64,000 nucleotides of DNA, taken from NCBI GenBank assembly GCA_023267195.1, contig JAHFNT010000003.1:10841-74840 (forward strand), given 5' to 3'. A model generated the notes under the pieces. That model saw only the letters and a program-made list of their open reading frames with translations, searched no databases and was not told where the DNA came from. Positions 3,077 to 63,470 of this stretch are shown piece after piece. Within the stretch, counting starts at the first letter, position 1, and every line of letters starts with the position of its first letter. The position numbers and the translations under genes are program-made. This DNA is from Candidatus Nomurabacteria bacterium. GTDB taxonomy: Bacteria; Patescibacteriota; Minisyncoccia; Phycocordibacterales; UBA9973.

Positions 3077-6000
3077 CTAATCTTCTATAAAGATCGGTAT
3101 CTTTTTGAATTCCAAACACGATGCGCCTCCACAAGACCATGTCCAAGCGGAGACACCGCTCGCCGCATCACCATTGTAATTGCCTTTAGTACAATTATTG
3201 TGTTTCAGGGCGCAAACGCCTCCACCCCAAGTATTAAACTTGCAGGAAGTGCTACATCCAACTGGTTCAGAATCGCCATTTAAATCTCCATAATCACAAT
3301 CTTCACCCGATTCCACTATACCATTTCCACAAACACCATTTTTTAATTCAACGCACGAAGGAAAAGCATTTGATCCGCCATTTATACCATTGCAATCCCA
3401 AGTATAGTCAGTAGCACTTTCTCTGTTATTGACACTAGTACCAGATACGCAAGCCCAGTGGATAATATCACAAACGCCATCAATGGGAGTCGCTATGCAC
3501 TTGCCTGTACCCGGATCCCATTCGGTGCCAGATGCACAACTGGAGAACACATTACTTAAAGCAAGCTGAACTCCATCATTGTAGAGATAAAAAGTTTCAA
3601 AATTATACTTGACCGCAAAAGGAACATTTGTCCCATTATTACCAGTAGCTACAGTGACACTGGGGGCTTTAGTAACTTCTGAAGTGCCTACTGGATTAGT
3701 CGTAGTCCAGGAAAAATTTATATTGCAACTGCTTGCTCCGAGCGGAATCGTGCAGGAAGGAACGGCAGGAGTAAGCGTGCCGGACATGCTGACAGGAAGG
3801 TCTGTAACAATCACATCTGTCCAAGGTCCGCAGTTATTGCCTTCGTTTGATTCGGCAATTACTCCTTGGCTCGAGGAATCTGTTTTGTCGGCACATGCCC
3901 TAATAGGATATTTCCCATTAGTGGTAAAAGTATAAGTATAAGATTGGGTCGTCACATTACTTGCGCCAGCGCCGAGAGCTGGCATTGGTGTCGCAGGAAG
4001 ATCCTCAACATTTAAACCTCTATTAGTAATCGGTATCTGAACCTGAAAGAAATTGGAGAAACTTTGGCCAGTCGAGGTGTCACCAAGGTTAGAAATAGTC
4101 GAAGAATATATTTGAGGCACACCCACCGTAGCTGTAGTTGGAGTTGTTGCGGAGGCGGTAAGATCTATCCCCGGAGGTAAAGCCGCAGCAACATTCACCG
4201 CTGTCCAGGAAGATGAGCAGTTGTTTCCTTCATTCGATTCAGTCACTGTGCCGACAAATGAAGCATTGTTGTCAGCGCAGGCTCGCATGTATTTGGTACC
4301 GACAGAAGTAAAGGTGTGAGGAGTTGAAATCACTACACTGCCGCCGGATGCGGACAAGGTACTAGTAGTTTGAACAATACTTGTTGTTTCGTTGCCACTA
4401 GCATGATTAGCATCTTCGTCAAACTGGTATAAATGCGTGATTGTTCCGGTTGCCGAGGTAGTGCCAATATTGGAAATTGTGGCGGTATAATTTTGAGCGA
4501 CATTAACAACCCCGGTGTTAGGAGAAGTGACGGAAGCAGTGAGGTCGGGGGCAAGTGGCGCTGTGACCGTTACTGTTGCACTAGAAGGACCCCCAGTACC
4601 ATTAGTATTTGTACAAGTCATTGTATAGGTGTAAGTCTTTATTTGTGTAAGCACCCCTTGAGAAATATTTGTTCCACTCACCGCATCGCCATTAGTATTT
4701 GTCCAATCTCCTCCGGTAAATGCACAAGAGGTTGGGTTGTTGGTAGCCGACCAAGTAAGCGCCGGGTTGACCACATTCACCACTCCAGAAGCCGGGTTAG
4801 CTGAAATAGTCACCACCGGCACGGGAACGGTTGTGACCACAATTGGCGTCCAAGCATAACAATTATTATTTTCATTAAACTCATTAACTACACCAAAATC
4901 GTACGGTGGTAAATCCGCGCAGACACGTAGGTAGTAAGTGCCAGCCGAGGAGAAAGTAAGCGATTTAAATATGGTAGTTGAATTTGGGACAGAACCATAT
5001 GGATCCCCGAGAGCTGGCGTTGCTACTGAATAGTTTGTAGGGTTGCTACCGCTTGCAGAACTGGAGACCTGGAAAAGAGAAGTGGAAGCGCTAGCAGAAA
5101 CTTCCCCATTATTTTTAATCGAGGCAAAATAATTTTGGGCTACATTTACGGTTGCGGTAGTTGGAGAAAGCGAAAGAACAGTTAGATCCGGCAGGAGACA
5201 AAACGGCGGAGCAGTAGCTGAGGCTTGAGCAGAATTTGGAGAAGTTCCAACAGTGTTTACCGCTTGCACCACGTAATAATAGCCAGTACTTGGAGTCAGG
5301 GAATTGCTGTCAGTGTAGGAAGTGCCAACGATACCACTAGCAAGCAAGGTATAACCGCTACCAGAAGTGGTACTGCGAAGCACTTTGTAACTTTCTGCTC
5401 CTGTCGATGCATTCCAGGATAAGTTAATCATACCAGTTCCACAACTTCCTGCAGAAGCAGAAAGATTGGTCGGCGCTAACGGCGCAGTACCGGACACTGC
5501 TACATCTCTCCAGTCTGAACAATTATTATTTTCGTTCGTTTCACTAACTACTCCACTTGAAGCAGAATTTGTTTTGTCGGCACAAACACGAACATAAAAT
5601 GTTCCCGGATAATCAGCAGTTATGGCAGGAGAAACTGCAGCAGTTGTGCCCCCGGCCGCAAGTGCACTGACAGTACTTGATGGAAGATCATTTAGAGTTC
5701 CCCCGCCATTCGGCTCAGTGGATGTCTGGAAAAAATAGGAGAAGGAAGCATTAGTAGATTCGTTGCCAACATTTGAAATTGTTGAATTGTATGTTTGAGG
5801 AACTCCCACCTGCGCCGTAGCTGGAGTAGGTAAAGAAGCAGTTAGATCCGGACCAGTTGGCGGAGAGGCAACCACGTACGCGCTTCCCGCAGGGCCAGCG
5901 CCGCTAATATTTGAACAAGTTAAGGTGTAGGTGTATGTTCCGGCTGATGGCAATACTCCTTGAGATACGCTTGAACCACTGACTGGTTTTGAACCGTTCC

Positions 6001-9000
6001 AATCACCCGAGGCGGTACAGGAACTAGGATTATTGGTCGCACTCCAAGTGATAGCTGGGTTAATACTCCCTGTTGTACCAGTACTAGGGGTGGCTGAAAT
6101 AGTTACTATCGGTACAGGAATCGTGGCCACCACCATTGCAGTCGCTTCTGCGCTATCTCCGCCAGCGTTGGAACAAACTAAACTATAGTTATATATTTTT
6201 TGTATTGGGAGTACTCCTTGCGACACACTAGTACCACTAACTGCTCCTCCGTTGGTATTGGTCCAGTTCCCAGAAAAAGTACAGGAGGTCGGATTGTTTG
6301 TAGCGCTCCAGGTTATAGCTGGGTTAATAGTTTGTGCTGGACCAGAAGCTGGAGAAACAGAAATAGTTACTACTGGTACAGGAGGAAGGGGTGGCTGACA
6401 CATACCTCCAATCCAACTTGTTCCTGATACACAAGTTGCGTAAGCTGTAGCGCTGGCTAGCGTTTCGCCATTGTTATTTAAAAAGAAATCTCTTAGACCG
6501 AAAGATGTTTGAACGGGATAGAAAGTTACTGGAATAGATACAGTGCCAGAATTGCCATTCCCAACTACAGTATTTGGGTTTTCCCTGTTTGAAGTGACAT
6601 TCGAAATACCAACTGGGTTTGTCGTATTCCAAGCCAAAGTCGTATTACAAGAACTAGCGCCGGAGGCAATTGTGCAGTTTGAAGCGGTCAAACTTCCGGA
6701 CATAACAGGCTTATCTTCGGAACATGAGGGAGAGGTATTGGACCCACCATTTTCGCCATTACAATTCCACAGATATTGTGTCGCGGAGTCTGGAATATCA
6801 CTTAAAATTCCTGCCTGACAAGCATTCACACTGACTCCACAGACGCCATTTACTGGACTACCTGGTGTGGTTTGACACATATTTTTTACTGCATTCCAAG
6901 TCGTACCCGAAGCGCAATTGGCGCTGACAATTGTTGTAGCTAGGGTACTTGAGTTATTAACCAAGCTGCAATTAACTGTGGGACTACTGTGAGAAATAGT
7001 TATAGACTGTGAACCAGAATTGGCGGTTATTGAACTAGGCGTAGCCCCCGGACAGGAAACAGTGGAAGTGCCAACCGGATAACTTGTATTCCAAGTCAAA
7101 GTTGAAGTACAAGAGTTTGCCCCAGAATTAATAGAACAGTTGGCGGGTGAAGCACTCAAGGTTCCGGATGTGAAGTTTTCTTGAACAAAGCTTGCCAGAA
7201 CTGCACATTCGGCATTAATAGGCCCAGTAGTATAAGTATTGCCAGCAAGAGAACCCCCGCAACCTGAAACCAAAGAAGTATATCCGGTATTGGGAGTAAC
7301 GGTAAAGGTTGTCGTGTTGCCCGCCGTCACCGTCCTAGAAGCAGGTGAAATAGATCCATTGGGACCGGCTGTGGCGGCGACACTATATGAGATCGAAGAT
7401 TTTGGCGCAGTGCAGGAAACACTTACTCCTCCATTTGACCCGTTGCAATCCCATCTATATTGGGTTGAAGTATCGCCAGTAGTACCACTGCTGGTACCCG
7501 CATCACAAGTGTAAGCAACCGCTGGGACTGAACAAGCGCCATTTATTGGGGAAGATGACGTCGCGCAAATTGTTCCATTCCAAAAAGTACCCGTATCACA
7601 GGAAGAAGTAACAGTTATACCGGCACCATTTGGCGATGTTGGAACAAGTGATTTGGCGTTGTTGTATAAATAAAAAGTTCTACTGCTGTAAGGAACAGTT
7701 AAAGTTTGACTGCCTGATGTGCCAGATAAATTTATATTTGACATTCCAGTTGCAGTGATAGCTGAACTTGCTGATTCTGGACTTGCCACACTCCAAGTTG
7801 AACCGACAGTACAACTACTCTGCCCTAAGGCGATGGTGCAAGAAGAAGATGCAGGAACAAGAGTACCGGTCATAGAAGGACATGGACTGGTAGTAAATGT
7901 TACATCTGTTCCAGCTCCAGTACCCACGCTGTTTACGGCATACGCGCGAAAATGATAAGCGGTATTGCATGTCAACCCGCTTACGTTTTGTGTAAAGTTT
8001 CCTGTTCCAAAACTTCCAGACTGAGGATAAGGACTTCCATAACTCGTACTGGTACCAAAATCAAAACCTCTTTGAGTTGCATTTACTCCTCCAGTATTTG
8101 TTATATTTCCATTTAGAGCGGCAGAAGTTTGAGTTACATTTGTAGCTGAGTTGGTGGTGACAGAGGGATCTATGATCGAGGATGATGTAAACGAAAAAGA
8201 AATATTACAGTCTTGGGTAATAGCCCCTGTGGTATATACACTACCAGATGTAAATGATCCTTTAATTGGACAGTAGTCCTGCACAATACTAGACAATGAT
8301 GAATTAACGCTAAAGAATGTGGTATCCCCATACACTACTGATCTAGATCCTGGAGATACTGTACCACCAGACCCATAACTTGCAGTAACAGTATGCGGTT
8401 GGACAGTATACACAGGACTAGAACAACTAGCTGAATTGCCAGCTAGATCTGTAATAGTAACACTACAAGAACTTCCAGCTGAAGCTGTACAAGTTCCACC
8501 GGCTACGTTTATGCCACTCTGCCCGCTAATACCACTGGCAGGCGCATCGGTTGCGCCGGAAAGTGTGTATGTAGGCCCTGATCCACTCCAATTTGCACTG
8601 CTAGGACTAGGACAAATAGGATCAAGCGTATCTATTCTATTCACCGGACTTTGACATGTAGTAAAATTTTGGGTTACTGATGGACAAGGAGTGAAGTATT
8701 GATAACTGGTAGTATCAATACAAGAGGCAGTACATGTAGCGTCATTAGAAGTACCAGTAGTACAACTACTTGTATGGTTAAGCGTACTGCTCCCATCGGT
8801 ATAACTTTGATTTAAAGTAAAATATTGAGAGCTCGCAGTTGTTTTCCAAGGAATAGGAGAAGCTGGGGTCCAAGTGGCTGGGTATGCAACACATTCTGCA
8901 TTAGTAGTTGGCTGTAAAGAAATAGTAACAGTTTTAGTGGGGCCATCGTAAGGGTCTGGTTGACAATTTTGCGCGATAAAGACAGCAATTTGCGCATTGG

Positions 9001-9316
9001 TGGTTATCGGGCTTGTGGTATAAGTTCTCCCGGTCGCATTTGGCCCAACATAATTATTTGATCCGCCAGGATAAGTAATATTATTCTGCGATCCTGGCTC
9101 CGCAACTGTGTATACCGTAAAAGTAAGCGTGTTTCCGGAAGCAACTTGCACTGAGCTATCTGTTGTATAATTATTTCCGTTGATGCTGAATGTTACGCCT
9201 GGGTCACCCACCGCACTACAGAGCGCAATTGCTTGTGCTCTATTAGAATTAAAATTAAAAACTCCAGTTAGAATAAAAATCAAAAAGAAGATAATTCTTA
9301 AAAATTTATTTTTCAT
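3077..9316 (-). CDS. giant secreted modular cell-surface protein (Ig-like, CARDB-like, Fn3-like and Cys-containing tandem modules)
   Basis: ORF 3077..9358 begins with TTG; an in-frame ATG at 9316 preceded by GGAG gives a classic signal peptide MKNKFLRIIFFLIFILTGVFNFNSNRAQA. Ser/Thr/Gly-rich. Four copies of a ~100-aa module (SGTL..C.I..G.SSC...W.T..PVG ... C.SGT.W....C), each followed by a QY.W.CNG.NGG...SC module. Three Ig-like repeats (VTISA.P..G..NPA.TWSATNNP.SC). Four CARDB-like repeats ending CAD......G.V.ESNE.NNC. One Fn3-like domain (SYKVLRSTTSGSGYTLL...YYYVVQAVNTVG). Confidence 0.75.
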   Translation of the reverse strand: MKNKFLRIIFFLIFILTGVFNFNSNRAQAIALCSAVGDPGVTFSINGNNYTTDSSVQVASGNTLTFTVYTVAEPGSQNNITYPGGSNNYVGPNATGRTYTTSPITTNAQIAVFIAQNCQPDPYDGPTKTVTISLQPTTNAECVAYPATWTPASPIPWKTTASSQYFTLNQSYTDGSSTLNHTSSCTTGTSNDATCTASCIDTTSYQYFTPCPSVTQNFTTCQSPVNRIDTLDPICPSPSSANWSGSGPTYTLSGATDAPASGISGQSGINVAGGTCTASAGSSCSVTITDLAGNSASCSSPVYTVQPHTVTASYGSGGTVSPGSRSVVYGDTTFFSVNSSLSSIVQDYCPIKGSFTSGSVYTTGAITQDCNISFSFTSSSIIDPSVTTNSATNVTQTSAALNGNITNTGGVNATQRGFDFGTSTSYGSPYPQSGSFGTGNFTQNVSGLTCNTAYHFRAYAVNSVGTGAGTDVTFTTSPCPSMTGTLVPASSSCTIALGQSSCTVGSTWSVASPESASSAITATGMSNINLSGTSGSQTLTVPYSSRTFYLYNNAKSLVPTSPNGAGITVTSSCDTGTFWNGTICATSSSPINGACSVPAVAYTCDAGTSSGTTGDTSTQYRWDCNGSNGGVSVSCTAPKSSISYSVAATAGPNGSISPASRTVTAGNTTTFTVTPNTGYTSLVSGCGGSLAGNTYTTGPINAECAVLASFVQENFTSGTLSASPANCSINSGANSCTSTLTWNTSYPVGTSTVSCPGATPSSITANSGSQSITISHSSPTVNCSLVNNSSTLATTIVSANCASGTTWNAVKNMCQTTPGSPVNGVCGVSVNACQAGILSDIPDSATQYLWNCNGENGGSNTSPSCSEDKPVMSGSLTASNCTIASGASSCNTTLAWNTTNPVGISNVTSNRENPNTVVGNGNSGTVSIPVTFYPVQTSFGLRDFFLNNNGETLASATAYATCVSGTSWIGGMCQPPLPPVPVVTISVSPASGPAQTINPAITWSATNNPTSCTFSGNWTNTNGGAVSGTSVSQGVLPIQKIYNYSLVCSNAGGDSAEATAMVVATIPVPIVTISATPSTGTTGSINPAITWSATNNPSSCTASGDWNGSKPVSGSSVSQGVLPSAGTYTYTLTCSNISGAGPAGSAYVVASPPTGPDLTASLPTPATAQVGVPQTYNSTISNVGNESTNASFSYFFQTSTEPNGGGTLNDLPSSTVSALAAGGTTAAVSPAITADYPGTFYVRVCADKTNSASSGVVSETNENNNCSDWRDVAVSGTAPLAPTNLSASAGSCGTGMINLSWNASTGAESYKVLRSTTSGSGYTLLASGIVGTSYTDSNSLTPSTGYYYVVQAVNTVGTSPNSAQASATAPPFCLLPDLTVLSLSPTTATVNVAQNYFASIKNNGEVSASASTSLFQVSSSASGSNPTNYSVATPALGDPYGSVPNSTTIFKSLTFSSAGTYYLRVCADLPPYDFGVVNEFNENNNCYAWTPIVVTTVPVPVVTISANPASGVVNVVNPALTWSATNNPTSCAFTGGDWTNTNGDAVSGTNISQGVLTQIKTYTYTMTCTNTNGTGGPSSATVTVTAPLAPDLTASVTSPNTGVVNVAQNYTATISNIGTTSATGTITHLYQFDEDANHASGNETTSIVQTTSTLSASGGSVVISTPHTFTSVGTKYMRACADNNASFVGTVTESNEGNNCSSSWTAVNVAAALPPGIDLTASATTPTTATVGVPQIYSSTISNLGDTSTGQSFSNFFQVQIPITNRGLNVEDLPATPMPALGAGASNVTTQSYTYTFTTNGKYPIRACADKTDSSSQGVIAESNEGNNCGPWTDVIVTDLPVSMSGTLTPAVPSCTIPLGASSCNINFSWTTTNPVGTSEVTKAPSVTVATGNNGTNVPFAVKYNFETFYLYNDGVQLALSNVFSSCASGTEWDPGTGKCIATPIDGVCDIIHWACVSGTSVNNRESATDYTWDCNGINGGSNAFPSCVELKNGVCGNGIVESGEDCDYGDLNGDSEPVGCSTSCKFNTWGGGVCALKHNNCTKGNYNGDAASGVSAWTWSCGGASCLEFKKIPIFIED

Positions 9317-9441
9317 ATTTATTTTTTCTCCGCTCCCATGGTTTAATAATACTTTCAATTGTACTACAAAAAATGTAAAAAGTTATCTAAAAAGTTATCC
9401 ACATAATTTAAAAAATTTAAAATTATAAATTTAGGCAAATT

Positions 9442-10347: not shown

Positions 10348-10537
10348 GGCGCCCTCCTTTCCGACCCGCCTTTCTTTGCGGATCTGTTGTTAGTCTACTC
10401 TTCTGTTGTCGACGAACCGACAACCGAAGAACCAGTAATTCCTTATGAGTATACCATAAAAAAGTAAAAAACACAATTGCAAGTGGATAACCTGTGGACA
10501 ATTTTTGCCGTATACTGTCAATGTTTTTGGCTCGAAT

Positions 10538-28855: not shown

Positions 28856-29128
28856 ATGAATAAACAAGCATTAGCAGAGTGGGTACATGGAAAACTAGGA
28901 GGAACCAAGGTTCAAGCAGAAGAAATCGTTGATGGATTGTTTGATGCTATAATCCAAACCTTGAAAAAGGGCGGTGAAGTATCAATCGCCGGCTTCGGAA
29001 TCTTTTCTGTAAAATCTCGCGCTGCTCGCATGGCTCGCAATCCAAAAACTGGGGAGCAGGTCAAGGTAGCTGCCAAGAAAGTGCCAAAATTCCGACCTGC
29101 AAAAGGTTTGAAGGATATGGTTGCCTAG
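28856..29128 (+). CDS. hup: HU-family nucleoid-associated DNA-binding protein
   Basis: 90 aa; HU/IHF fold signature GFGIFSVKSRAARMARNPKTGE. Confidence 0.9.
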   Translation: MNKQALAEWVHGKLGGTKVQAEEIVDGLFDAIIQTLKKGGEVSIAGFGIFSVKSRAARMARNPKTGEQVKVAAKKVPKFRPAKGLKDMVA

Positions 29129-29196: not shown

Positions 29197-29721
29197 TTAT
29201 TTTTGAGGTATTGGTAATCCAAGCTTTTGTAATGGTAAATATTTAAAATAATATTGACACCCAACAGATATTATATAATCACAAACATCTTTATAGGACG
29301 AGTGTTTGAACCAATCACTAAGTATATAAATGTATTCCACTTCTATGTTTAGAGGAGCCATTAACTTTGCATATTGTTTTCTTTTAAAATCACATGTTTG
29401 TAATTTTTCATCAACAGAACCTGCGACTTTTTGAAATTTTACTTCAATAATAAAAAGTGTGTTATTTACAATTACATAAATAGCTTCATCTGGCAATAAT
29501 TTCTTAGAAAGAATCTTTTTATAATCAATTTTTTTAGATTCGAGAAATTTATACAATGCGTTCTTCTTGAAACTCCTTGCAACTTCTTTCCCATTGTAAA
29601 GTATAATATTACCATTAATTTTGTAACCTTTCTGTTTTTTTAGTAACGCCAAAATATCACTTTCTTTTTCAAAATTTAACCCAGTTATTGTATTACCACC
29701 ACCCTTTCCTTTTTCAATCAT
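29197..29721 (-). CDS. Type II restriction endonuclease (PD-(D/E)xK fold), candidate
   Basis: 174 aa; D...IIEVKFQK PD-ExK-like core; start overlaps stop of the DNA methyltransferase; very AT-rich relative to neighbours. Confidence 0.5.
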   Translation of the reverse strand: MIEKGKGGGNTITGLNFEKESDILALLKKQKGYKINGNIILYNGKEVARSFKKNALYKFLESKKIDYKKILSKKLLPDEAIYVIVNNTLFIIEVKFQKVAGSVDEKLQTCDFKRKQYAKLMAPLNIEVEYIYILSDWFKHSSYKDVCDYIISVGCQYYFKYLPLQKLGLPIPQK

Positions 29722-29722
29722 A

Positions 29723-30544
29723 TTATTTTTTTAAATCATTAAATCGCTTTATTGATAAATCTAGATAATTTTTTTCCATATCAATACCAATGAATTTTCT
29801 ACCATTCATTACTGAAGCTATGCCAGTAGTAGAACTTCCCGCAAAAGGATCTAGAACAACGTCCCCTTTGTTTGTGCTGGATAGAACAATACGCTTCAAC
29901 AAATCTAAGGGCTTCTGAGTAGGGTGCTTTCCGTACTTCTTCTCCTCTGGTTTAGGTGTGCCCATAGACCAAACTGATCTCATTTGAAGTCCTGGTTTTT
30001 TTAATCTATCTTCCGGCCAATTTCCATCTTTCATTTCTCTATAATTAAAAGTGTGTTTTGCTCTTTTGTCTTTTCTGGCCCAAATGATTGTTTCATGACT
30101 TGCTGTAAAAAAACGACAACTCAAATTTGGTGAAGCATTAGGTTTAAACCAAGATATATCATTTAAGATATGGTAACTTAGGGACTGTAAGGCATGTCCA
30201 CATTGATAAATGGAATGGTATGTGCCGCTCACCCATAAGGTACCATTTGGTTTTAAAACACGTTTACATGCTTGAAGCCAACGATAATGGAAGGCATAAT
30301 CATCTAAAAAACCTTTACTGATGTCCCACTCACCTTTATTTACACTAACCATTTGTCCTGCGTGCACAGTAAAGCCTCCATTTGACAGATTATATGGCGG
30401 ATCTGCAAAAATCATATCAACTGAATCTTCTGGAAGTTGATTTAAAATATCTAGACAATCTCCATTGTATAAAACAAAATTATCCTTAGAAAAATAAGGC
30501 TTATTTTTAACTACCGAAAGAATTTTTTTATCTACAACTACCAT
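29723..30544 (-). CDS. DNA methyltransferase, beta-class N6-adenine/N4-cytosine (DPPY)
   Basis: 273 aa; motif IV DPPYNL near N-terminus and motif I LDPFAGSSTTG near C-terminus (beta-class order). Confidence 0.85.
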   Translation of the reverse strand: MVVVDKKILSVVKNKPYFSKDNFVLYNGDCLDILNQLPEDSVDMIFADPPYNLSNGGFTVHAGQMVSVNKGEWDISKGFLDDYAFHYRWLQACKRVLKPNGTLWVSGTYHSIYQCGHALQSLSYHILNDISWFKPNASPNLSCRFFTASHETIIWARKDKRAKHTFNYREMKDGNWPEDRLKKPGLQMRSVWSMGTPKPEEKKYGKHPTQKPLDLLKRIVLSSTNKGDVVLDPFAGSSTTGIASVMNGRKFIGIDMEKNYLDLSIKRFNDLKK

Positions 30545-30567
30545 ATACTTATATTAACATTTTTTGG

Positions 30568-31080
30568 CTAAAAACGAATTTCTTCATTGTATAACCTTTT
30601 ATAAACTTCCGTTGATTCTTTAATAAGGCGAATAATATGTCTCTTTAGGTAAATTTTGTACTCACCATAGAAAAAAGCTATATCATCTTCATAATCTGCT
30701 CCATGCGATACACCATCTATGCTTATTGCATTCGGAACTTTACCACTAATCATATTGAAAACAAATTTAATCTGATATTTCTTATCTAGTAGGTTTTCAG
30801 GAGAACTAAGATGAAAAGCGGAATTACGAACTTTATTTACTAAATCAGTAATATCGGAAATGTCTGTGTTAATAGAAACATCGTCCTTAAAATTTATACG
30901 CTCTCCTAATTTAACAAATTTCTGTAATAAATCATCAAGTTTTAGAATTATGGAAATAAAAACTGGCTCACGAAACACTCTAAGAACATCAGCCCCAAAT
31001 ATACCTGTGTTAATAAACTGGACTATGTCCCGAATGTTTGATTCTATTTGAGATTTTATAAAAAAATTATCTTTATCCAT
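30568..31080 (-). CDS. HEPN-like (Rx4H motif) protein, candidate abortive-infection/RNase toxin
   Basis: 170 aa, predicted all-alpha; motif RNSAFH matching HEPN Rx4-6H; ATG 2 nt after lexA stop with AGGAAA SD inside lexA 3' end. Confidence 0.35.
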   Translation of the reverse strand: MDKDNFFIKSQIESNIRDIVQFINTGIFGADVLRVFREPVFISIILKLDDLLQKFVKLGERINFKDDVSINTDISDITDLVNKVRNSAFHLSSPENLLDKKYQIKFVFNMISGKVPNAISIDGVSHGADYEDDIAFFYGEYKIYLKRHIIRLIKESTEVYKRLYNEEIRF

Positions 31081-31082
31081 TT

Positions 31083-31661
31083 TTAGTATTTCCTAATCAC
31101 CGCTTTTACCACTGCATTTATATTTAAAGAATGTTCTGGGTAAATGGGTTGATAATTTTTATTGGCAGGTTCAAGCCAGGCTTTGGCACCACTCTTTCTA
31201 AAATATTTCATCGTGAATTCCCCATCCACTTCGGCTATGACTATTTGCCCATCGTCGGCTTTATTCGTCTTCTCCACGAGCACCATATCTCCGGGTTCGA
31301 TGTGCGCCTCGATCATAGAATCGCCGTCAACTTCGAGCATATAGGTAAGCGGTTTATTTTTTATTAAAAGATCGTCGAGGTTTACAGTATCTGCCAGCTC
31401 TTCTTCGACTGTCGCGGGAAAACCGGCCGTGACAAAACCGAGCAATGGCACACCCCCAGCTTCCTCTCCAAAAGTTTCAGACGGAATTAATCTGCCAAGA
31501 TGATCCTTCGCCACAATTCCCGCCTCGATTAACTTTTCCACCACGCGAAACACCGCGTTCTTTGATTTAAAACCGAATAACTGCAGCATCTCCGAATACG
31601 ACGGCATGCGTTTATTGTCTCGGTAAAAGGATTCTAGTTTTATTTGATGCAAACTACGCAT
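31083..31661 (-). CDS. lexA: LexA-family repressor (wHTH + S24 self-cleaving peptidase)
   Basis: 192 aa; N-terminal wHTH, cleavage-site region, S24 Ser/Lys dyad context (DGDSM ... K). Confidence 0.85.
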   Translation of the reverse strand: MRSLHQIKLESFYRDNKRMPSYSEMLQLFGFKSKNAVFRVVEKLIEAGIVAKDHLGRLIPSETFGEEAGGVPLLGFVTAGFPATVEEELADTVNLDDLLIKNKPLTYMLEVDGDSMIEAHIEPGDMVLVEKTNKADDGQIVIAEVDGEFTMKYFRKSGAKAWLEPANKNYQPIYPEHSLNINAVVKAVIRKY

Positions 31662-31860
31662 AAATGTTCGTTCGGAAAAATAGAGTAACTAGTTTGTTGG
31701 TGAAACTTGTTCTCGTATTATAGCGAACTTTCTTCAAAAGCAATTTGTGATCCCTCGCCTCTTTGCGATAATCCAATCCTTGGAGAATTTTTAAGTCAAT
31801 TTTTTTATTGATCTTTTGAATCTCCCTCTCTAACATTTTTACATATTGTGATTGTGACAT
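31654..31860 (-). CDS. small basic coiled-coil protein overlapping lexA start, hypothetical
   Basis: 68 aa; ATGA-type 8-nt overlap with lexA; first ORF downstream of the LexA-box promoter. Confidence 0.35.
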   Translation of the reverse strand: MSQSQYVKMLEREIQKINKKIDLKILQGLDYRKEARDHKLLLKKVRYNTRTSFTNKLVTLFFRTNIYA

Positions 31861-31900
31861 AAAATTTATAAATTAAATTGCTAAACGACCTGCCTATATA

Positions 31901-31929
31901 GTATAAGTGAACGAGCGTTCACCTGTCAA
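31901..31929 (-). promoter_or_regulatory. sigma70-type promoter for the lexA operon (minus strand TTGACA-17-TTATAC)
   Basis: minus strand reads TTGACAggtgaacgctcgttcacTTATACtatata; LexA box lies in the spacer. Confidence 0.5.
31907..31922. promoter_or_regulatory. LexA operator (Cheo-box type GAAC-N4-GTTC), perfect palindrome
   Basis: GTGAACGAGCGTTCAC, 6-bp perfect arms; located between divergent lexA operon and ORF 31989. Confidence 0.65.
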
Positions 31930-31988
31930 TAAGCAAACTGTGGATAACTTCTAGGCCCTATAAAATATAAATATATTATACTTAAATT

Positions 31989-32303
31989 ATGAAACCCGAA
32001 GGTCCATCAAAATTACAAGATATAAGTTTAGATGGGAGAAAAAGGAATAAAGAATATCAAGAGTTTATTCTTGTATTTTTACGAGAGAAATTGTTTGAGA
32101 TTTTACTCCCCGGAAAATCAAAAATATTATGGACACTTGGATTAACTGGCTCTTCAAAAAACAAAGAAGGGGTAACGGAAGATGACATAAAAACATTTAA
32201 AGAGATATTAAAATTGGGAAATATAAAAGAAATAGAAAGTTATTGCAAAACAAAAGGAATAGACTTTGAAAAAATTTTAAAGGAGGCAGAGGAGGAGAAA
32301 TGA
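31989..32303 (+). CDS. hypothetical protein
   Basis: 104 aa ORF divergent from lexA operon; no recognizable motifs. Confidence 0.35.
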   Translation: MKPEGPSKLQDISLDGRKRNKEYQEFILVFLREKLFEILLPGKSKILWTLGLTGSSKNKEGVTEDDIKTFKEILKLGNIKEIESYCKTKGIDFEKILKEAEEEK

Positions 32304-36530: not shown

Positions 36531-39500
36531 ATGCAATCGGGCCAAGCAACCACTTTGTCGGGCACTTACTCCAAAGTAACATTTCTTCACAAATTGCTAG
36601 CGTTTTCGCTGGCTTTTTTGTTTTTAGTAGTTCCGCTTGCTCCAGTTTGGGCAGAAAAAGTTACCGAGGACCCATCTGCGATTTCTAAAGTTGAATCAAC
36701 CACCACAGAACCGGAAATTGTTACTGAGAATAGCGAGGACGCAGATGTTTCAACAAAAGTAGACATGGATAAACAACCACCGGCACCACAGTCGTTTACC
36801 GTAAATAATATATCTGGGGATAATCGCGATAAACCAAATTTGAGTTTTCCTCAAGTGGATCAGGCCTCTGGCGGGTTAGCTTATAGTTATCCCTTAAATA
36901 TACCGCCCGGTAGAAATGGTTTTAATCCAAATTTAACTTTGCAATATTCAAGCCAAGATACAGATCAAGCATCGGTTTTTGGTTATGGATGGTCAATCAA
37001 TATACCTTACATAAAACGTTTGAATAAAACTGGAGTAGAAAAATTATATACAACCAATTACTTTACCTCTTCACTCTCCGGTGAATTGGTAAATGTTTCT
37101 GGTTCTACCTATGCGCCTAAGGTGGAAAATGGGGATTTTCTAAAATATAACTACGATGGCACCTCTTGGATCGTAACCGATAAAAAAGGAACAGTCTACA
37201 AATTTGGGACAAGCACACCAGCCAGACAAGACGACACCACTGGAACGAAAATTTACAAATGGATGCTCGAGGAAGCAAGAGATACAAATAATAATTTCAT
37301 CAAATATGAATATTACAAAGACACTGGGCAAATTTATCCTGAAACTATAAAATACACCGGCAACGACACGACCAATGGAGTGTTTTCAGTAAGTTTGATT
37401 CGTTCTGGAAGAAATGACAACATTACACAAAACTCAACGCTCTTTAGTATAACTACCAATTATAAAATATCTGAAATACAAACAATAACCAATGGGACTT
37501 GGAATAAAAAATATATTTTGGGTTATTCAAATGGTGACAATGGTTATAAATCATTAATAACTAGCATCACGGAGTCAGGACAGGATGAAAATGCAAATGT
37601 TGTCACATTGCCACCTGTGCAATTTACTTATCAAGTAGCGACAACGCCAGGAAGTGATTTTGTTTCTGATTTTGCCTGGTCTAATCCTGTTTCTCCAACA
37701 ATTTCTACCAATCCATCTTATGGAGCGGTGGTAGCAGATGTTAATAGTGATGGTCTGCCGGATATTATGGAATCATATAGAAGTTCCGGAACTCTTATTT
37801 GGTACAAAGGAACTTACTTAAATAACGGCAACGGAACCTGGACCCAAAATCCAAATCTTGAACCGCCAACAATTTTTGGAGATAATAATCCAGTAACGGA
37901 ACAAGGGATAAGGGCAGTTGACTTGAATGCGGATGGATTTGTAGATCTGGTTCAAAGTTCTGGGTCTCTGTCGAAAGTTTATATAAACACAGGAACTTCA
38001 TGGGTTTTGAATAATAACTGGATTCCCAAATGTGCCTTTGCTAGCCCAATATATGGAGACATTGGTTGTAGATTAGATGATATAAATGGTGACGATTTGC
38101 CAGATTTTTTCATAGCGAGAGGTGATAACACCGGCAACCCACCAATCAATACCGAAGTATATTTAAATAATGGGAACGGTTGGAGTGAAAATCCTGAACC
38201 AGGCTGGAGTATACCTGCAGACTTAAGATTTGGCACAGTACCCGTAGATTATAATGGTGACGGACTTTTGGATTTTTTACAAGGCTACAAAAATACTTTG
38301 AGCAACCCAACAGTTGAAATAAAAAAGGCATATAAAAATAACGGGGACAAAACTTGGTCTTTGGATGGTGCATATACATCTCCAGTAATTTTCGCAACTC
38401 AAACAAACTTAGCTTCATTGCCGTTTACTACCGGAGCTTTAGTAGCGGATGTGAATGGAGATGGTTTAGTTGACATATTACATGGCACCGAAACAACTGA
38501 TGGTGGACATCTAAATAAGGGCACAGGCTGGAGTTTTACACCAAACTGGGACTTTGGTCATGGTTCTATTCCAATCGAAGCACCACTCCGGGCTAGATTA
38601 GGAGATTTTGATGGAGATGGAATGATTGATTATTATGAAAGTGGAAGTGGTAGCGCAACTTTTTCTAAAAATCAAAACATAAAGGCGGATCTAATCAAAA
38701 CCATAAAGAATCAATATGGTGGAATTTCAACCATTACTTACAAAGGCTCAACTCAATACAAAAATGGCAATAGCTTAGCAAACCCAAATCTGCCATTCAA
38801 TATAATAACTGTAAGCAGTATTTCCTCTAACCCCAGCCTTGGAGGAACAAGTGTTGTGAAAAATTACACTTATGAACAAGGAGATTATTATTACAACACA
38901 ATACTGGATAGAAAATACGCCGGTTTTGGAAAGATAATTGACCTTGATTCTTCTGGCGCCAAAACCGCCAGCTATTTTCATCAAGGCAATGAGACAAATT
39001 CTAGCTTAGGTGAATACGATGATCATCCGTCAAAAATCGGCAAAATTTACCGCACCGAAATTAGAGACAGCTCCGGGAATTTATATGAGAGCGTGATCAA
39101 TAAATGGGAAAAACAAAATTTGGGCCCGGGTAGAGATTTTGCCAAACTGGCACGAACAATGGTCATGTCTTTTGACGGCAATAGCGACAACAGAAGCAAG
39201 GCGGAAGAATACTCATACGATAGTTATGGCAATCTAACGCAAAAAATTTCCTGGGGAGAAGTGATAGGCGCAACTGACGGAACATTCACCGACCTGGGGA
39301 ACGACAAATTTACGGAAAATATTTCTTATGTTTCAAATACTGGCAATTATGTCGTGGGTTTACCATCTCAAGATATAGTACTCGATCAAAATTCAGACAA
39401 AGTTCGTGAGACAAAAATGTATTATGATGGACTCGCTTTTGGTTCGGTCGGCACGGGCAATGAAACCAAACTGGAAAAATGGAAATCTGGCAGTTCGTAT

Positions 39501-42500
39501 GTAAATACTCAAAAATCTTACAATATAACTTACGGGATTTTGACTTCCTCCACCGATGAACGAGGCAAGGTTACAACTTACTCTTATGATTCTTATAATC
39601 TATACCCAATTTCAGTAACTAATCCTGCCCTGCAGATAGTACGATATCTTTATGATTATTCTCTCGGCAAACCAAAACAATTGATTGATCAAAACAGCTT
39701 CACTTATCAAACAATTTTTGATGGACTGGATAGAGTATTGCAAGAAAAAGTTCCGGACTTATCTTCACCTGATACTTTAGTAGTCAAAACAGCCTACACC
39801 TATGCTGACACCTCTCTCGCGGTAGGTGTTTTGAAAACAGATTATTTAGATAGCACAAATTCTGTAAATACCTACCAATATTTTGACGGCCTGAATCGTT
39901 TGATCCAAGAACGCAAAGAGGCCGAGCAGAGCAACTCCTACAATACTCGCGATATTGTGTACAATAATTTCGGTTTAATCCAAAAAGAATCTTTACCTTA
40001 TGCGTCAAATGGGTATGCCAGGACAAATCCAACTACCGACAATGCCCTTTACACTTCCTATTCTTATGACGCGCAAAAGAGAATCAGCAATGTCGCAAAT
40101 GCAGTGGGTAACACCTCGACCAATTACGATGACTGGAAAACTTCCATTACTGATCCGAATGGTAAAATCAAACATTTCTTGAGCGATGGGTATGATAATC
40201 TAGTAAAGGTGGAGGAAATAAATGCTGGCAATACTTACAACACTTACTACGAATGGGATGGTAACAAATTTCTGACTAAAATCACCGATGCTCTCGCCAA
40301 TGTTCGCAATTTCACTTACGACGGGCTGGGCAGGAGGCTCACTGCAGAAGATTTGCATGCCATGGGAGACAGTACTTATGGCACTTGGGCTTATACCTAT
40401 GACGATGCAGGCAATCTGACGCGAAGTATAAGCCCAGAAACAAAAATTATAAATTATTCTTATGACGACATTAATAGATTGCAAACTGAAGATTATGTGG
40501 GAGGTAGCGGAATGGAAATATCCTATGTTTATGATAATTGCACAAACGGCATAGGAAAATTATGCTCTTCAACAGTTTTGGGCGGAGGAGACAATGTCTA
40601 CACTTATGATAGTGTAGGTAATATTGCTTCTGATCAAGCCACTATCAACGAAAATATTTATCTCACGTCGTATTCATACGATCGACAAAATAATTTGTCA
40701 CTCATAACCTATCCAGATAATGCACAAGTGAAATATATCTACAATGCTGCCGGCTTGCTTGAAAAAGTTGAAAGAAAAGAAAATAGTGGAACATTTGTAG
40801 ATGTAATTTCAAATTTTGATTATAATCCAACAGAACAAGTGGCCGTGCAAGCAGATGCAAATGGCATCACTACGACAAATACTTATGATTCAGGAAAATT
40901 ATACCGTTTGACAAATAAGAAAACTTTGAATTCTACCCCCATTTCTCCTTGGAAAGATCCTAACCCCGCTATCACCCCCATAGATCCATATGTAACAAAT
41001 TTTGGGAACATAAATATTACCCCTAAAACAAATCTATCGATTGCCTTGCAAGATTTATCTTATATTTATGATAATGTCGGTAATATTATTAAAATCATTG
41101 ATTCATCAAATACTACCACTGCCAAAACTGCTGATTATGTCTACGACGATCTATACCGCTTAGTTTCTGCTACTATCACTGGCGTACCATCTCCCCAAAC
41201 TCCCTACATTCAAACCTTCACCTATGACGCTATTGGTAACATCACTTCCGGCCCGCTTGGCACTTATCTTTATCAAGGTAACACCGGAGTAAACTACGCC
41301 AACCCCCACGCTACCACCTCTATTGGTGGAGTAGAACAAACTTACGACAAAGATGGCAATCTAATTTCTGCTGGAGATATTACTTACTCTTGGAATTACA
41401 AAGGGAAACTTGCTGAAACTCTTTCAGTATACAACTATTACAACGCCAAAGGAGACAGAGTACAAACCAATGCTTTCTCTTCTATCAATACCTATTATCC
41501 CAATAAATTCTATAGCACCTCCTGCCCCAATTGTTCCGACAGGCAACCTCCAGATCAAGAACGTCAAATCAAATTAACCAAACAAATCTACATTGGAGAT
41601 ACACTGGTAGCCACCACTGAAACTCTAAGCGCCGTTGTCACCCCATATTATGATCACACCGATCAATTAGGTTCCATTACCATTGTCTCTGATGCCAACA
41701 AGAATATTGCGCAAACTTTAGATTACTATCCTTATGGCAAGAAAAGAGTCGTTGCCCCTCCTGGAGACTATGATTCACAGCGCCAATACATCGGACAAAT
41801 CTATGATCTAGATACTGGACTAAACTATCTAAATGCGAGATACTATGATGGAAACAAGGGGCAGTTTATTTCGCAGGATCCGATGTTTTGGAACTTTGAC
41901 AATTCCTGGTTGCTTGATCCACAGAACATGAATGCGTATAGCTATGCAAGGGGGAATCCGATGAATAGGTCGGATCCGGGTGGTATGGCTAGTAAAGAAT
42001 TTAATTTTCCTACGTTTACGATGATAAAATCGTTTTTCAATTCTTTGGTGGGGAAAACAAATACGCAGAGGGAGACAACGCAAATTCCATTTATAAATCA
42101 AAATAATTCTCAAAAAAAGACCGACAATTCTGGCCAAAATAAAAATACTTCTGGTTATATAAGAAGCAATGATGTTAATATCACCTTTAGCCCGGGAGCT
42201 GATAATGTTGTTAACCAAAAAATGGTTGATGGATATAAAAATGTATTTAAAGAAGCAGGACATTATGGTATAATTTCTGTTAATTTTTATTCAACCACAA
42301 ACCATGTATCAGAACCACCCGGCAGTTTTTCTTGGCATGACTTTGCGCTTGCTGGTGATATTAATATGGTCAATGGCATGAAAGCAACCGAAGATAATTT
42401 TTATGCAAAAACTTTGCAGGAAGTTATAAACCGGACACAAGGAGTAAGAGAGAATTTTGGTCCATTTATGATTACACATTCCAGTAAAATATATTCTCAA

Positions 42501-42563
42501 GAAGAATATTCAAGGTTAAGCAAACAGCACCAAGATCATCTTCATACTTCTTTTAATCAATGA
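36531..42563 (+). CDS. RHS/YD-repeat polymorphic toxin, Tc-toxin TcB-TcC fusion-like (SpvB N-domain + FG-GAP propeller + RHS shell + variable C-terminal toxin domain)
   Basis: 2010 aa; signal peptide; SpvB-type N-domain (GGLAYSYPLNIPPGRNGFNPNLTLQYSS); six FG-GAP/VCBS-like DxNxDGxxD repeats; many YD repeats (YSYDSYGNL, YTYDDAGNL, YVYDDLYRL); RHS core end RYYDGNKGQFISQDP...YSYARGNPMNRSDPGG; ~190-aa C-terminal domain with H-x6-D and HxH. Confidence 0.85.
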   Translation: MQSGQATTLSGTYSKVTFLHKLLAFSLAFLFLVVPLAPVWAEKVTEDPSAISKVESTTTEPEIVTENSEDADVSTKVDMDKQPPAPQSFTVNNISGDNRDKPNLSFPQVDQASGGLAYSYPLNIPPGRNGFNPNLTLQYSSQDTDQASVFGYGWSINIPYIKRLNKTGVEKLYTTNYFTSSLSGELVNVSGSTYAPKVENGDFLKYNYDGTSWIVTDKKGTVYKFGTSTPARQDDTTGTKIYKWMLEEARDTNNNFIKYEYYKDTGQIYPETIKYTGNDTTNGVFSVSLIRSGRNDNITQNSTLFSITTNYKISEIQTITNGTWNKKYILGYSNGDNGYKSLITSITESGQDENANVVTLPPVQFTYQVATTPGSDFVSDFAWSNPVSPTISTNPSYGAVVADVNSDGLPDIMESYRSSGTLIWYKGTYLNNGNGTWTQNPNLEPPTIFGDNNPVTEQGIRAVDLNADGFVDLVQSSGSLSKVYINTGTSWVLNNNWIPKCAFASPIYGDIGCRLDDINGDDLPDFFIARGDNTGNPPINTEVYLNNGNGWSENPEPGWSIPADLRFGTVPVDYNGDGLLDFLQGYKNTLSNPTVEIKKAYKNNGDKTWSLDGAYTSPVIFATQTNLASLPFTTGALVADVNGDGLVDILHGTETTDGGHLNKGTGWSFTPNWDFGHGSIPIEAPLRARLGDFDGDGMIDYYESGSGSATFSKNQNIKADLIKTIKNQYGGISTITYKGSTQYKNGNSLANPNLPFNIITVSSISSNPSLGGTSVVKNYTYEQGDYYYNTILDRKYAGFGKIIDLDSSGAKTASYFHQGNETNSSLGEYDDHPSKIGKIYRTEIRDSSGNLYESVINKWEKQNLGPGRDFAKLARTMVMSFDGNSDNRSKAEEYSYDSYGNLTQKISWGEVIGATDGTFTDLGNDKFTENISYVSNTGNYVVGLPSQDIVLDQNSDKVRETKMYYDGLAFGSVGTGNETKLEKWKSGSSYVNTQKSYNITYGILTSSTDERGKVTTYSYDSYNLYPISVTNPALQIVRYLYDYSLGKPKQLIDQNSFTYQTIFDGLDRVLQEKVPDLSSPDTLVVKTAYTYADTSLAVGVLKTDYLDSTNSVNTYQYFDGLNRLIQERKEAEQSNSYNTRDIVYNNFGLIQKESLPYASNGYARTNPTTDNALYTSYSYDAQKRISNVANAVGNTSTNYDDWKTSITDPNGKIKHFLSDGYDNLVKVEEINAGNTYNTYYEWDGNKFLTKITDALANVRNFTYDGLGRRLTAEDLHAMGDSTYGTWAYTYDDAGNLTRSISPETKIINYSYDDINRLQTEDYVGGSGMEISYVYDNCTNGIGKLCSSTVLGGGDNVYTYDSVGNIASDQATINENIYLTSYSYDRQNNLSLITYPDNAQVKYIYNAAGLLEKVERKENSGTFVDVISNFDYNPTEQVAVQADANGITTTNTYDSGKLYRLTNKKTLNSTPISPWKDPNPAITPIDPYVTNFGNINITPKTNLSIALQDLSYIYDNVGNIIKIIDSSNTTTAKTADYVYDDLYRLVSATITGVPSPQTPYIQTFTYDAIGNITSGPLGTYLYQGNTGVNYANPHATTSIGGVEQTYDKDGNLISAGDITYSWNYKGKLAETLSVYNYYNAKGDRVQTNAFSSINTYYPNKFYSTSCPNCSDRQPPDQERQIKLTKQIYIGDTLVATTETLSAVVTPYYDHTDQLGSITIVSDANKNIAQTLDYYPYGKKRVVAPPGDYDSQRQYIGQIYDLDTGLNYLNARYYDGNKGQFISQDPMFWNFDNSWLLDPQNMNAYSYARGNPMNRSDPGGMASKEFNFPTFTMIKSFFNSLVGKTNTQRETTQIPFINQNNSQKKTDNSGQNKNTSGYIRSNDVNITFSPGADNVVNQKMVDGYKNVFKEAGHYGIISVNFYSTTNHVSEPPGSFSWHDFALAGDINMVNGMKATEDNFYAKTLQEVINRTQGVRENFGPFMITHSSKIYSQEEYSRLSKQHQDHLHTSFNQ

Positions 42564-60016: not shown

Positions 60017-60214
60017 TAACTTATGTGGATAACTATGTTAGTAATGTTTATAAAGGACATATTTAAAAATTGTTTTTTAATGCCATTTTTAACTAAAATA
60101 CATTGTTAAATAAAGATATTTTGATAAAAGACACAAAAAATTTCTATTTTGTTTCATGTGAAACATGTTTCTTGTGAAACATCAGAATTACTTGCAAAAT
60201 AAGGATAGAATAGA

Positions 60215-63101: not shown

Positions 63102-63470
63102 GATAGATCTTAATATTTTTATTTTAGATTTTATAAAACAAACTAAATGTCGCGAGATTTCCTTTCCAACCCCAATTTAGACTAATGAAAATAAGGGTAG
63201 AATCACAGGACGACCAATAGGTTCTGCAAACAAAGGTTCTCACGATGGTTACTGTCGTTTCTGGTCTTTCGGTCAGCTCATACCCAACTCCCATTCGGAA
63301 CTACAATTGCAATGATAGCTCAAAAAGGGTCAAAAGTCAATCTGGCAAGGTTTAGCTGTGGATAAGTATTTTTGGTCAAAATTTGACAAAGTTGGGTAAA
63401 AATATGCCTAATTATAAAGGACATGGGATTGAAAATTAGACGAGAATTTTAAAGGGTATATAATACTACC

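Follow-up and report, generated by a model that had tools for sequence, protein, structure and literature searches.

Genes and features at the lexA locus

The lexA gene of the 64-kb window, by which we mean the whole stretch of DNA analysed here, is the second cistron of a minus-strand operon that opens with a gene for a 68-aa orphan protein, referred to below as the small gene. The features of the operon and its promoter region are collected in Table 1. The arrangement is part of a conserved synteny that runs from a dksA-like gene and comM through the promoter region (DnaA box, −35 hexamer, LexA box and −10 hexamer) to the small gene, lexA and a convergent HU gene.

Table 1. Features of the lexA operon and its promoter region, with positions in the window
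Feature	Position	Strand	Remarks
Insertion after lexA (Type II R-M cassette)	29197..31080	-	170-aa ORF, Type II N6/N4 DNA methyltransferase, PD-(D/E)XK-like nuclease
lexA, 192 aa	31083..31661	-	predicted wHTH; S24 peptidase; cleavage site Ala79-Gly80, Ser115, Lys152
Small gene, 68-aa orphan protein	31654..31860	-	first cistron; stop overlaps lexA ATG by 8 nt
Transcription start, predicted	31893..31895	-	placed by its spacing of 6-7 nt from the −10 and by leaderless orthologues
−10 hexamer TATACT	31900..31905	-	1 base (31906) from the operator; 18-nt spacer to the −35
LexA operator (SOS box), predicted	31907..31922	.	GTGAACG-NN-CGTTCAC; about −29 to −14 from the predicted transcription start
−35 hexamer TTGACA	31924..31929	-	1 base (31923) between hexamer and operator
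DnaA-box consensus TTATCCACA, candidate DnaA site	31939..31947	-	9 nt upstream of the −35; about −54 to −46

To judge by its sequence, the lexA product is a true LexA. It scores 126.8 bits against the NCBIfam equivalog TIGR00498 (cutoff 110.95), covering profile positions 19-201 of 203, and it matches Pfam Peptidase_S24 at 2.4e-28. Residues 19-189 align to crystal structures of E. coli LexA, winged-helix domain included, and with phmmer residues 19-65 align to the wHTH of these structures. A79-G80, S115 and K152 correspond to A84-G85, S119 and K156 of the E. coli protein, and these residues show no variation in 27 homologues. Proteins with 80-100% identity occur in MAGs of Candidatus Paceibacterota, Nomurabacteria and Minisyncoccia, which places the window in a CPR/Patescibacteria genome.

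Elsewhere the window encodes the ATPase and platform proteins of a type IV pilus/T2SS, NusA, an H+-pyrophosphatase, trigger factor and pyrimidine-synthesis enzymes, as well as ClpP, RNase Y, HU, ComM, a DksA-like protein, adenosylhomocysteinase and PNPase, and, among others, a Xer-type recombinase, an ExoIII-like nuclease and a CCA-adding enzyme. Two giant ORFs of 2093 aa (3077-9358, minus strand) and 2010 aa (36531-42563, plus strand) probably encode surface proteins; the former shows weak CARDB/fn3 matches and adjoins the type IV pilus/T2SS genes.

Two elements beside the operon are peculiar to the window or nearly so. The Type II restriction-modification (R-M) cassette follows the lexA stop codon after a gap of 2 nt and is found in one of 80 related loci (L016, in a different gene order). 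A simple scan of the gap between lexA and the cassette found no minus-strand terminator and no good promoter there, so that the cassette may be read through from the SOS promoter; conceivably, it may then be co-transcribed with lexA and hence damage-inducible. On the other side, between comM and the promoter, the plus strand holds a divergent 104-aa ORF (31989-32303) without a family match, which is probably either a recent insertion or not a gene. A TATACT stands 6 nt before its ATG, in a leaderless-like arrangement. Because this ORF is absent from all 80 related loci, control of it was rejected as a conserved function.

A palindrome of the LexA-box type fills the spacer of the operon promoter

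Direct reading of the sequence gives a 16-bp palindrome, GTGAACGAGCGTTCAC, with the structure GTGAAC-GAGC-GTTCAC; on the plus strand its surroundings read ...agtataaGTGAACGAGCGTTCACctgtcaa.... The palindrome contains the GAAC-N4-GTTC core of a Cheo box. An initial annotation of this DNA had described it as a perfect box of this type, and this description holds: GTGAAC-N4-GTTCAC has a single match in the 64-kb window and none in 100 dinucleotide-preserving shuffles. The bare core GAAC-N4-GTTC is not rare, with two matches in the window against 0.83 expected, and 20 of 100 shuffles reach two. Its second match, GAACCAAGGTTC at 28902-28913 (plus strand), lies within the HU coding sequence, shows no conservation across the 60 HU-bearing loci, and is most likely due to chance. 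When the window was scanned for intergenic sites with at most 2 mismatches to the extended motif, no other site was found, in agreement with the initial annotation, which had seen no second copy in the intergenic regions it scanned.

The palindrome lies inside a near-consensus sigma-70 promoter. In a consensus scan, TTGACA-18-TATACT was the best promoter of the region, with 11 of 12 matches and a spacer within the usual 16-18 nt. The initial annotation had given this promoter as TTGACA-17-TTATAC and had assigned it to the lexA operon. Both of its hexamers are present (TTGACA at 31929-31924, TTATAC at 31906-31901) at the spacing of 17 nt that was given, but the conserved −10 is TATACT, one base further on (31905-31900) and with an 18-nt spacer, as indicated by the promoter scan and by 80 orthologous promoters. 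Strand and operon were assigned correctly, with the amendment that the first cistron is the conserved 68-aa orphan gene and that lexA comes second, which is why the promoter is 230 bp away from lexA. Transcription from the predicted start would yield a leader of ~33 nt ahead of the small gene. An Rfam scan of the window returned only four tRNAs, and no known RNA family in the leader.

The box is invariant, and its promoter geometry fixed, among 80 related loci

For comparison we used 80 lexA loci from different species-level Paceibacterota/Nomurabacteria genomes, with LexA proteins of 69-87% identity. GTGAACG-NN-CGTTCAC is found upstream of lexA in every one of them, and its 14 specified bases are invariant. 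When the loci are aligned on the box, variation is confined to the central 2 nt, which are mostly CT or its complement AG, as predicted for a site that binds a symmetric dimer. Two further matches to GAAC-N4-GTTC are all that the 410 kb of these loci contain.

The position of the box is fixed as well. In all 80 orthologous loci it sits between the −35 and the −10 of the promoter of the small gene and lexA. All 80 have TTGACA, directly next to the box in 44 and at a distance of 1 nt in 36, the window being among the latter; TATACT begins one base after the box (column counts T80 A80 T80 A79 C75 T80). The resulting spacer measures 17 nt in 44 of the 80 loci and 17 or 18 nt overall, with 18 nt in the window. 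Outside these promoter elements the leader and the upstream sequence are unalignable and decay to noise, and neither the length nor the sequence of the leader is conserved. In four loci (L025, L043, L052 and L078) the ATG of the small gene follows TATACT after exactly 6 nt (box end +13), in a leaderless arrangement. These loci independently mark TATACT as a working −10 and point to a transcription start near 31893 in the window. These data support the autoregulatory arrangement proposed in the initial annotation, with a bona fide LexA and a box whose place in the promoter is the same in each of the 80 loci.

Some leaders contain inserts. Different hairpin-forming inserts lie between the promoter and the small gene in L001, L006, L028, L040, L045 and L075, and also in L005, L011-L013, L047 and L073. 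Examples are cccctacccagcctcccccta...tagggggagg and palindromes of the type gcgtcgcgc...gcgcgacg; these inserts look like small mobile repeat elements. In L071 a 91-aa GIY-YIG nuclease ORF (Pfam 6.3e-16) is located between the SOS promoter and the small gene, which puts the box at −619 from lexA.

The layout recurs in distant lineages

We scanned metagenome contigs for perfect boxes whose flanks have a context other than that of Nomurabacteria. The scan gave at least 120 loci, with a GC content from 0.26 to 0.76, and in at least 19 of them a LexA homologue adjoins the box. At least 12 of these 19 have TTGACA-(0-2 nt)-box-TATA(A/C)T immediately before lexA, in several cases apparently leaderless. 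In the distant lineages of L102 and L197 it is the ATG of lexA that follows the −10 hexamer after 6 nt, again without a leader. Contigs with this layout ahead of lexA are unrelated and range in GC content from 0.26 to 0.70, which indicates that an operator in the spacer of the lexA promoter is ancient and widespread; the recurrence of the box-in-spacer layout is a further point in favour of the autoregulatory arrangement.

Among the matches listed, perfect boxes outside the lexA context of our loci were mostly lexA promoters of other lineages. Some of the others lie beside genes for TetR/XRE-type regulators (L092 and L094) or inside coding regions. The scattered matches away from lexA are probably fortuitous, but the regulator genes next to some of them, in unrelated contigs, indicate that the palindrome is not exclusive to LexA. 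Five non-CPR contigs (L092, L124, L147, L153 and L173) carry two tandem boxes around the −10, as in TTGACAA-GTGAACGACCGTTCAC-TATGCTGGG-GTGAACGGTCGTTCAC, and some of these adjoin TetR/XRE-type regulator genes; other regulators elsewhere probably use the same palindrome.

These contigs raise the question of whether the palindrome might be the operator of another factor that controls the lexA operon, such as a TetR/XRE-type regulator or the small protein itself. The 16-mer beside the TetR- and XRE-family genes is identical to that of the window, and the N-terminal domain of LexA matches Pfam LexA_DNA_bind (PF01726) only weakly (E = 0.026; 14.7 bits, cutoff 23.7), which speaks against the reading as a LexA operator. 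However, the site fits the established LexA consensus of Gram-positive-type lineages, and it is tied to lexA in all 80 related loci and in at least 19 metagenome loci, 12 of which are without the small gene. Moreover, there is no other regulator gene among the conserved neighbours, and the small protein, predicted to form a simple helical hairpin, has no match to a DNA-binding fold. Control by another factor is therefore improbable in our view.

An even smaller probability attaches to a function in RNA, with the inverted repeat forming a terminator or attenuator of comM or a 5′ structure. An 8-bp hairpin can indeed be folded (−14.3 kcal/mol, z = −2.5 against shuffles), and comM ends a few bases upstream in most of the related genomes. 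Yet no U-tract follows the stem, and a terminator scan called none there. Whereas structural hairpins tolerate covariation, the arms show neither substitutions nor compensatory changes in 80 species. Transcription, moreover, is predicted to start downstream of the element, which is situated between the −35 and the −10, and in the window the palindrome has remained at the promoter although the end of comM is 640 bp distant. Finally, a chance palindrome, or a recognition or controller site of the R-M cassette directly downstream of lexA (Type II systems recognise palindromes), is effectively refuted by the comparative data, with the 16-mer in 0 of 100 shuffles and the palindrome in 80 of 80 loci against the cassette in one.

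We regard it as highly likely, on the strength of sequence and conservation, that the palindrome is the operator by which LexA would repress its own operon.

A single LexA box in ~82 kb of the same genome

Regulon-level support for the motif as a LexA motif is missing here, which counts against this reading: in ~82 kb of this genome no second LexA box was found beside any other gene. The ~18 kb examined in addition to the window encode RecJ, RNase H, ComEC and a UvrD-like helicase, none of them with a box. The window itself encodes none of recA, uvrABC, dinB/umuC, ruvAB and nrd, and recA is likewise absent from the ~82 kb. Because the canonical SOS genes are absent from the window, and the UvrD-like helicase gene is the only one in the ~82 kb, the missing second site is only mildly informative on the size of the regulon and does not suffice for the suggestion of the initial annotation that the local SOS regulon may be very small. 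No further CPR SOS gene with a perfect box was present among the metagenome matches listed, a weak negative given that the scan covered perfect sites.

The first cistron encodes a conserved small protein

The small gene is present in all 81 sequences (the window and the 80 loci) and is a genuine coding sequence. Pairwise differences at the first, second and third codon positions amount to 0.195, 0.14 and 0.50, a pattern that indicates purifying selection on the protein. The N-terminal 50 residues are conserved (MSQxQYLKMLEREIQKINKKIDLKILQGExYxKEARDHKLLLKKVRYH) and are followed by a variable basic/aromatic tail. In L013 the small ORF is broken after 14 codons, perhaps by a sequencing error or because it is a pseudogene.

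Clustering divides the family into 517 groups at 90% identity and ~270 at 50%, all of them short, stand-alone and 'hypothetical', and all in Patescibacteria-like contigs. No match was found in Pfam, NCBIfam or PADLOC, and a profile search against 1.8 billion representatives returned only short stand-alone relatives. AlphaFold2 predicts a two-helix hairpin (residues 3-27 and 32-49; pLDDT 82.9) and a third helix of low confidence. When this model was compared with the PDB by Foldseek, it matched only generic hairpins, none better than E = 2.9.

In distant contigs the small gene still adjoins lexA, and in L102 the order is reversed, with a leaderless lexA followed by the small gene. Its retention next to lexA, even in reversed order, argues for a functional link between both genes. 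We hypothesize that the small protein is an SOS-induced checkpoint effector.

A DnaA-box consensus accompanies the small gene

The sequence TTATCCACA upstream of the −35 matches the canonical DnaA box (PMC8203912) and is a candidate site for the DnaA of this lineage. It is exact in 74 of the 79 loci that were readable at this position and has one mismatch in the other five. In all 79 it keeps the same orientation and a distance of 7-10 nt to the −35, and the 410 kb of flanks contain only one other exact copy. A recurrent ggccgaaggtgaat further upstream was dismissed as a separate element, as it represents the last codons of comM (RPKVN).

The distant lexA loci separate the box from lexA. None of the 12 listed without the small gene has a DnaA box, whereas 5 of the 6 readable ones listed with the small gene have it at no more than one mismatch (Fisher exact test, about 7e-4 by our own estimate). 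The DnaA box thus goes with the small gene and not with lexA alone. DnaA probably modulates the promoter of the lexA operon through this predicted box. A search of the literature turned up no report of a DnaA box paired with a lexA promoter.

The window contains three more exact copies of TTATCCACA, at 9395-9403 (plus strand), 60024-60032 (minus strand) and 63357-63365 (minus strand), and a near-tandem pair, TTGTCCACAggTTATCCACT, at 10482-10501 (minus strand). All of these are intergenic, and 0.75 exact copies would be expected; they may belong to a small DnaA regulon or to other DnaA-binding regions. An origin of replication at or near the lexA locus was considered and rejected: there is a single box at the locus, no origin-like turn of the GC skew and no dnaA gene.

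Proposed regulation of the operon

We propose that TTGACA-18-TATACT drives transcription of the operon on the minus strand, to give the 68-aa protein and then LexA, with translational overlap between the two. A LexA dimer bound to GTGAACG-NN-CGTTCAC would fill nearly the whole spacer between the −35 and the −10 and so exclude RNA polymerase. Upon DNA damage, RecA-ssDNA filaments would trigger self-cleavage of LexA at Ala79-Gly80 by means of Ser115 and Lys152. With the operator emptied, the strong promoter would fire, and synthesis of the small protein and of fresh LexA would follow; once the damage has been cleared, the new LexA would shut the promoter again in a negative autoregulation. DnaA at TTATCCACA would modulate the same promoter and thereby couple the operon to replication status.

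More tentatively, and with clearly less confidence than we have in the operator itself, the SOS master operon of Paceibacterota/Nomurabacteria might be seen as a module in which one promoter is under the control of both a DnaA box and a LexA box, and a lineage-specific small hairpin checkpoint effector is placed before lexA. The small protein could then be, for example, an inhibitor of division or of replication initiation, by analogy with Sda, SulA, YneA and SidA. Across hundreds of CPR lineages the small orphan protein is the first product of a predicted SOS operon and goes along with a consensus DnaA box; if confirmed, these observations would make it a candidate cell-cycle checkpoint effector and would show that DnaA acts directly on the SOS master operon. 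The motif GTGAACG-NN-CGTTCAC, with its fixed promoter geometry, can also serve as a seed for genome-wide searches for SOS regulons in uncultured bacteria with reduced genomes.

Comparison with known systems

That LexA controls its own gene by way of a GAAC-N4-GTTC box is textbook knowledge; in Bacillus the consensus is CGAAC-RNRY-GTTCG. The arms in the window are instead fixed as GTGAACG and CGTTCAC, with T in place of C before GAAC and a centre flanked by G and C. The core GAAC-N4-GTTC is the same as in the SOS-box consensus of B. subtilis (PMC4234289). The LexA (DinR) of B. subtilis and other Gram-positive bacteria also resembles the protein described here, for which a wHTH is predicted, and which has an S24 domain for self-cleavage with its Ala-Gly site and Ser/Lys dyad; its operator overlaps the core promoter of its own lexA. 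The window differs from Bacillus in that the spacer is filled exactly by one site, an orphan small gene precedes lexA as the first cistron, and the promoter has a DnaA-box consensus upstream of the −35.

Closer in phylogeny, the SOS network of Patescibacteria has been analysed (Sanchez-Osuna, Barbe & Erill, 2017, Environ Microbiol 19:3465, as given in ref 9 of PMC8565304). That network concerns the same superphylum and the same regulator as lexA in the window, and the operator described here very probably falls within what was reported there. In that study the LexA regulon of Patescibacteria was reportedly reconstructed by comparative genomics. The LexA operator itself, a known arrangement, therefore adds little; the combination of a small gene and a DnaA box is less ordinary.

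For this combination there are two partial parallels. In B. subtilis, DnaA binds directly to the promoter of sda, the gene of a small checkpoint protein, Sda, that forms a helical hairpin (PMC8203912). Likewise, the protein encoded ahead of lexA is small (<80 aa) and predicted to be a two-helix hairpin, and its promoter carries a consensus DnaA box, with a putative link to replication/DNA-damage signalling; the likeness is one of analogy, as neither sequence similarity nor significant fold similarity to Sda was found. We know of no CPR bacterium that sporulates. The second parallel is E. coli, where uvrB and recN are co-regulated by DnaA and LexA (Wurihan et al., 2018, reviewed in PMC8203912), so that DnaA and LexA boxes on one SOS promoter bring together signals from the replication initiator and from DNA damage; the promoter described here likewise holds both kinds of box. 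The E. coli examples are repair genes and not the lexA operon, whereas at the locus described here a predicted single DnaA site at about −50 lies on the promoter of the lexA operon and tracks the small gene.
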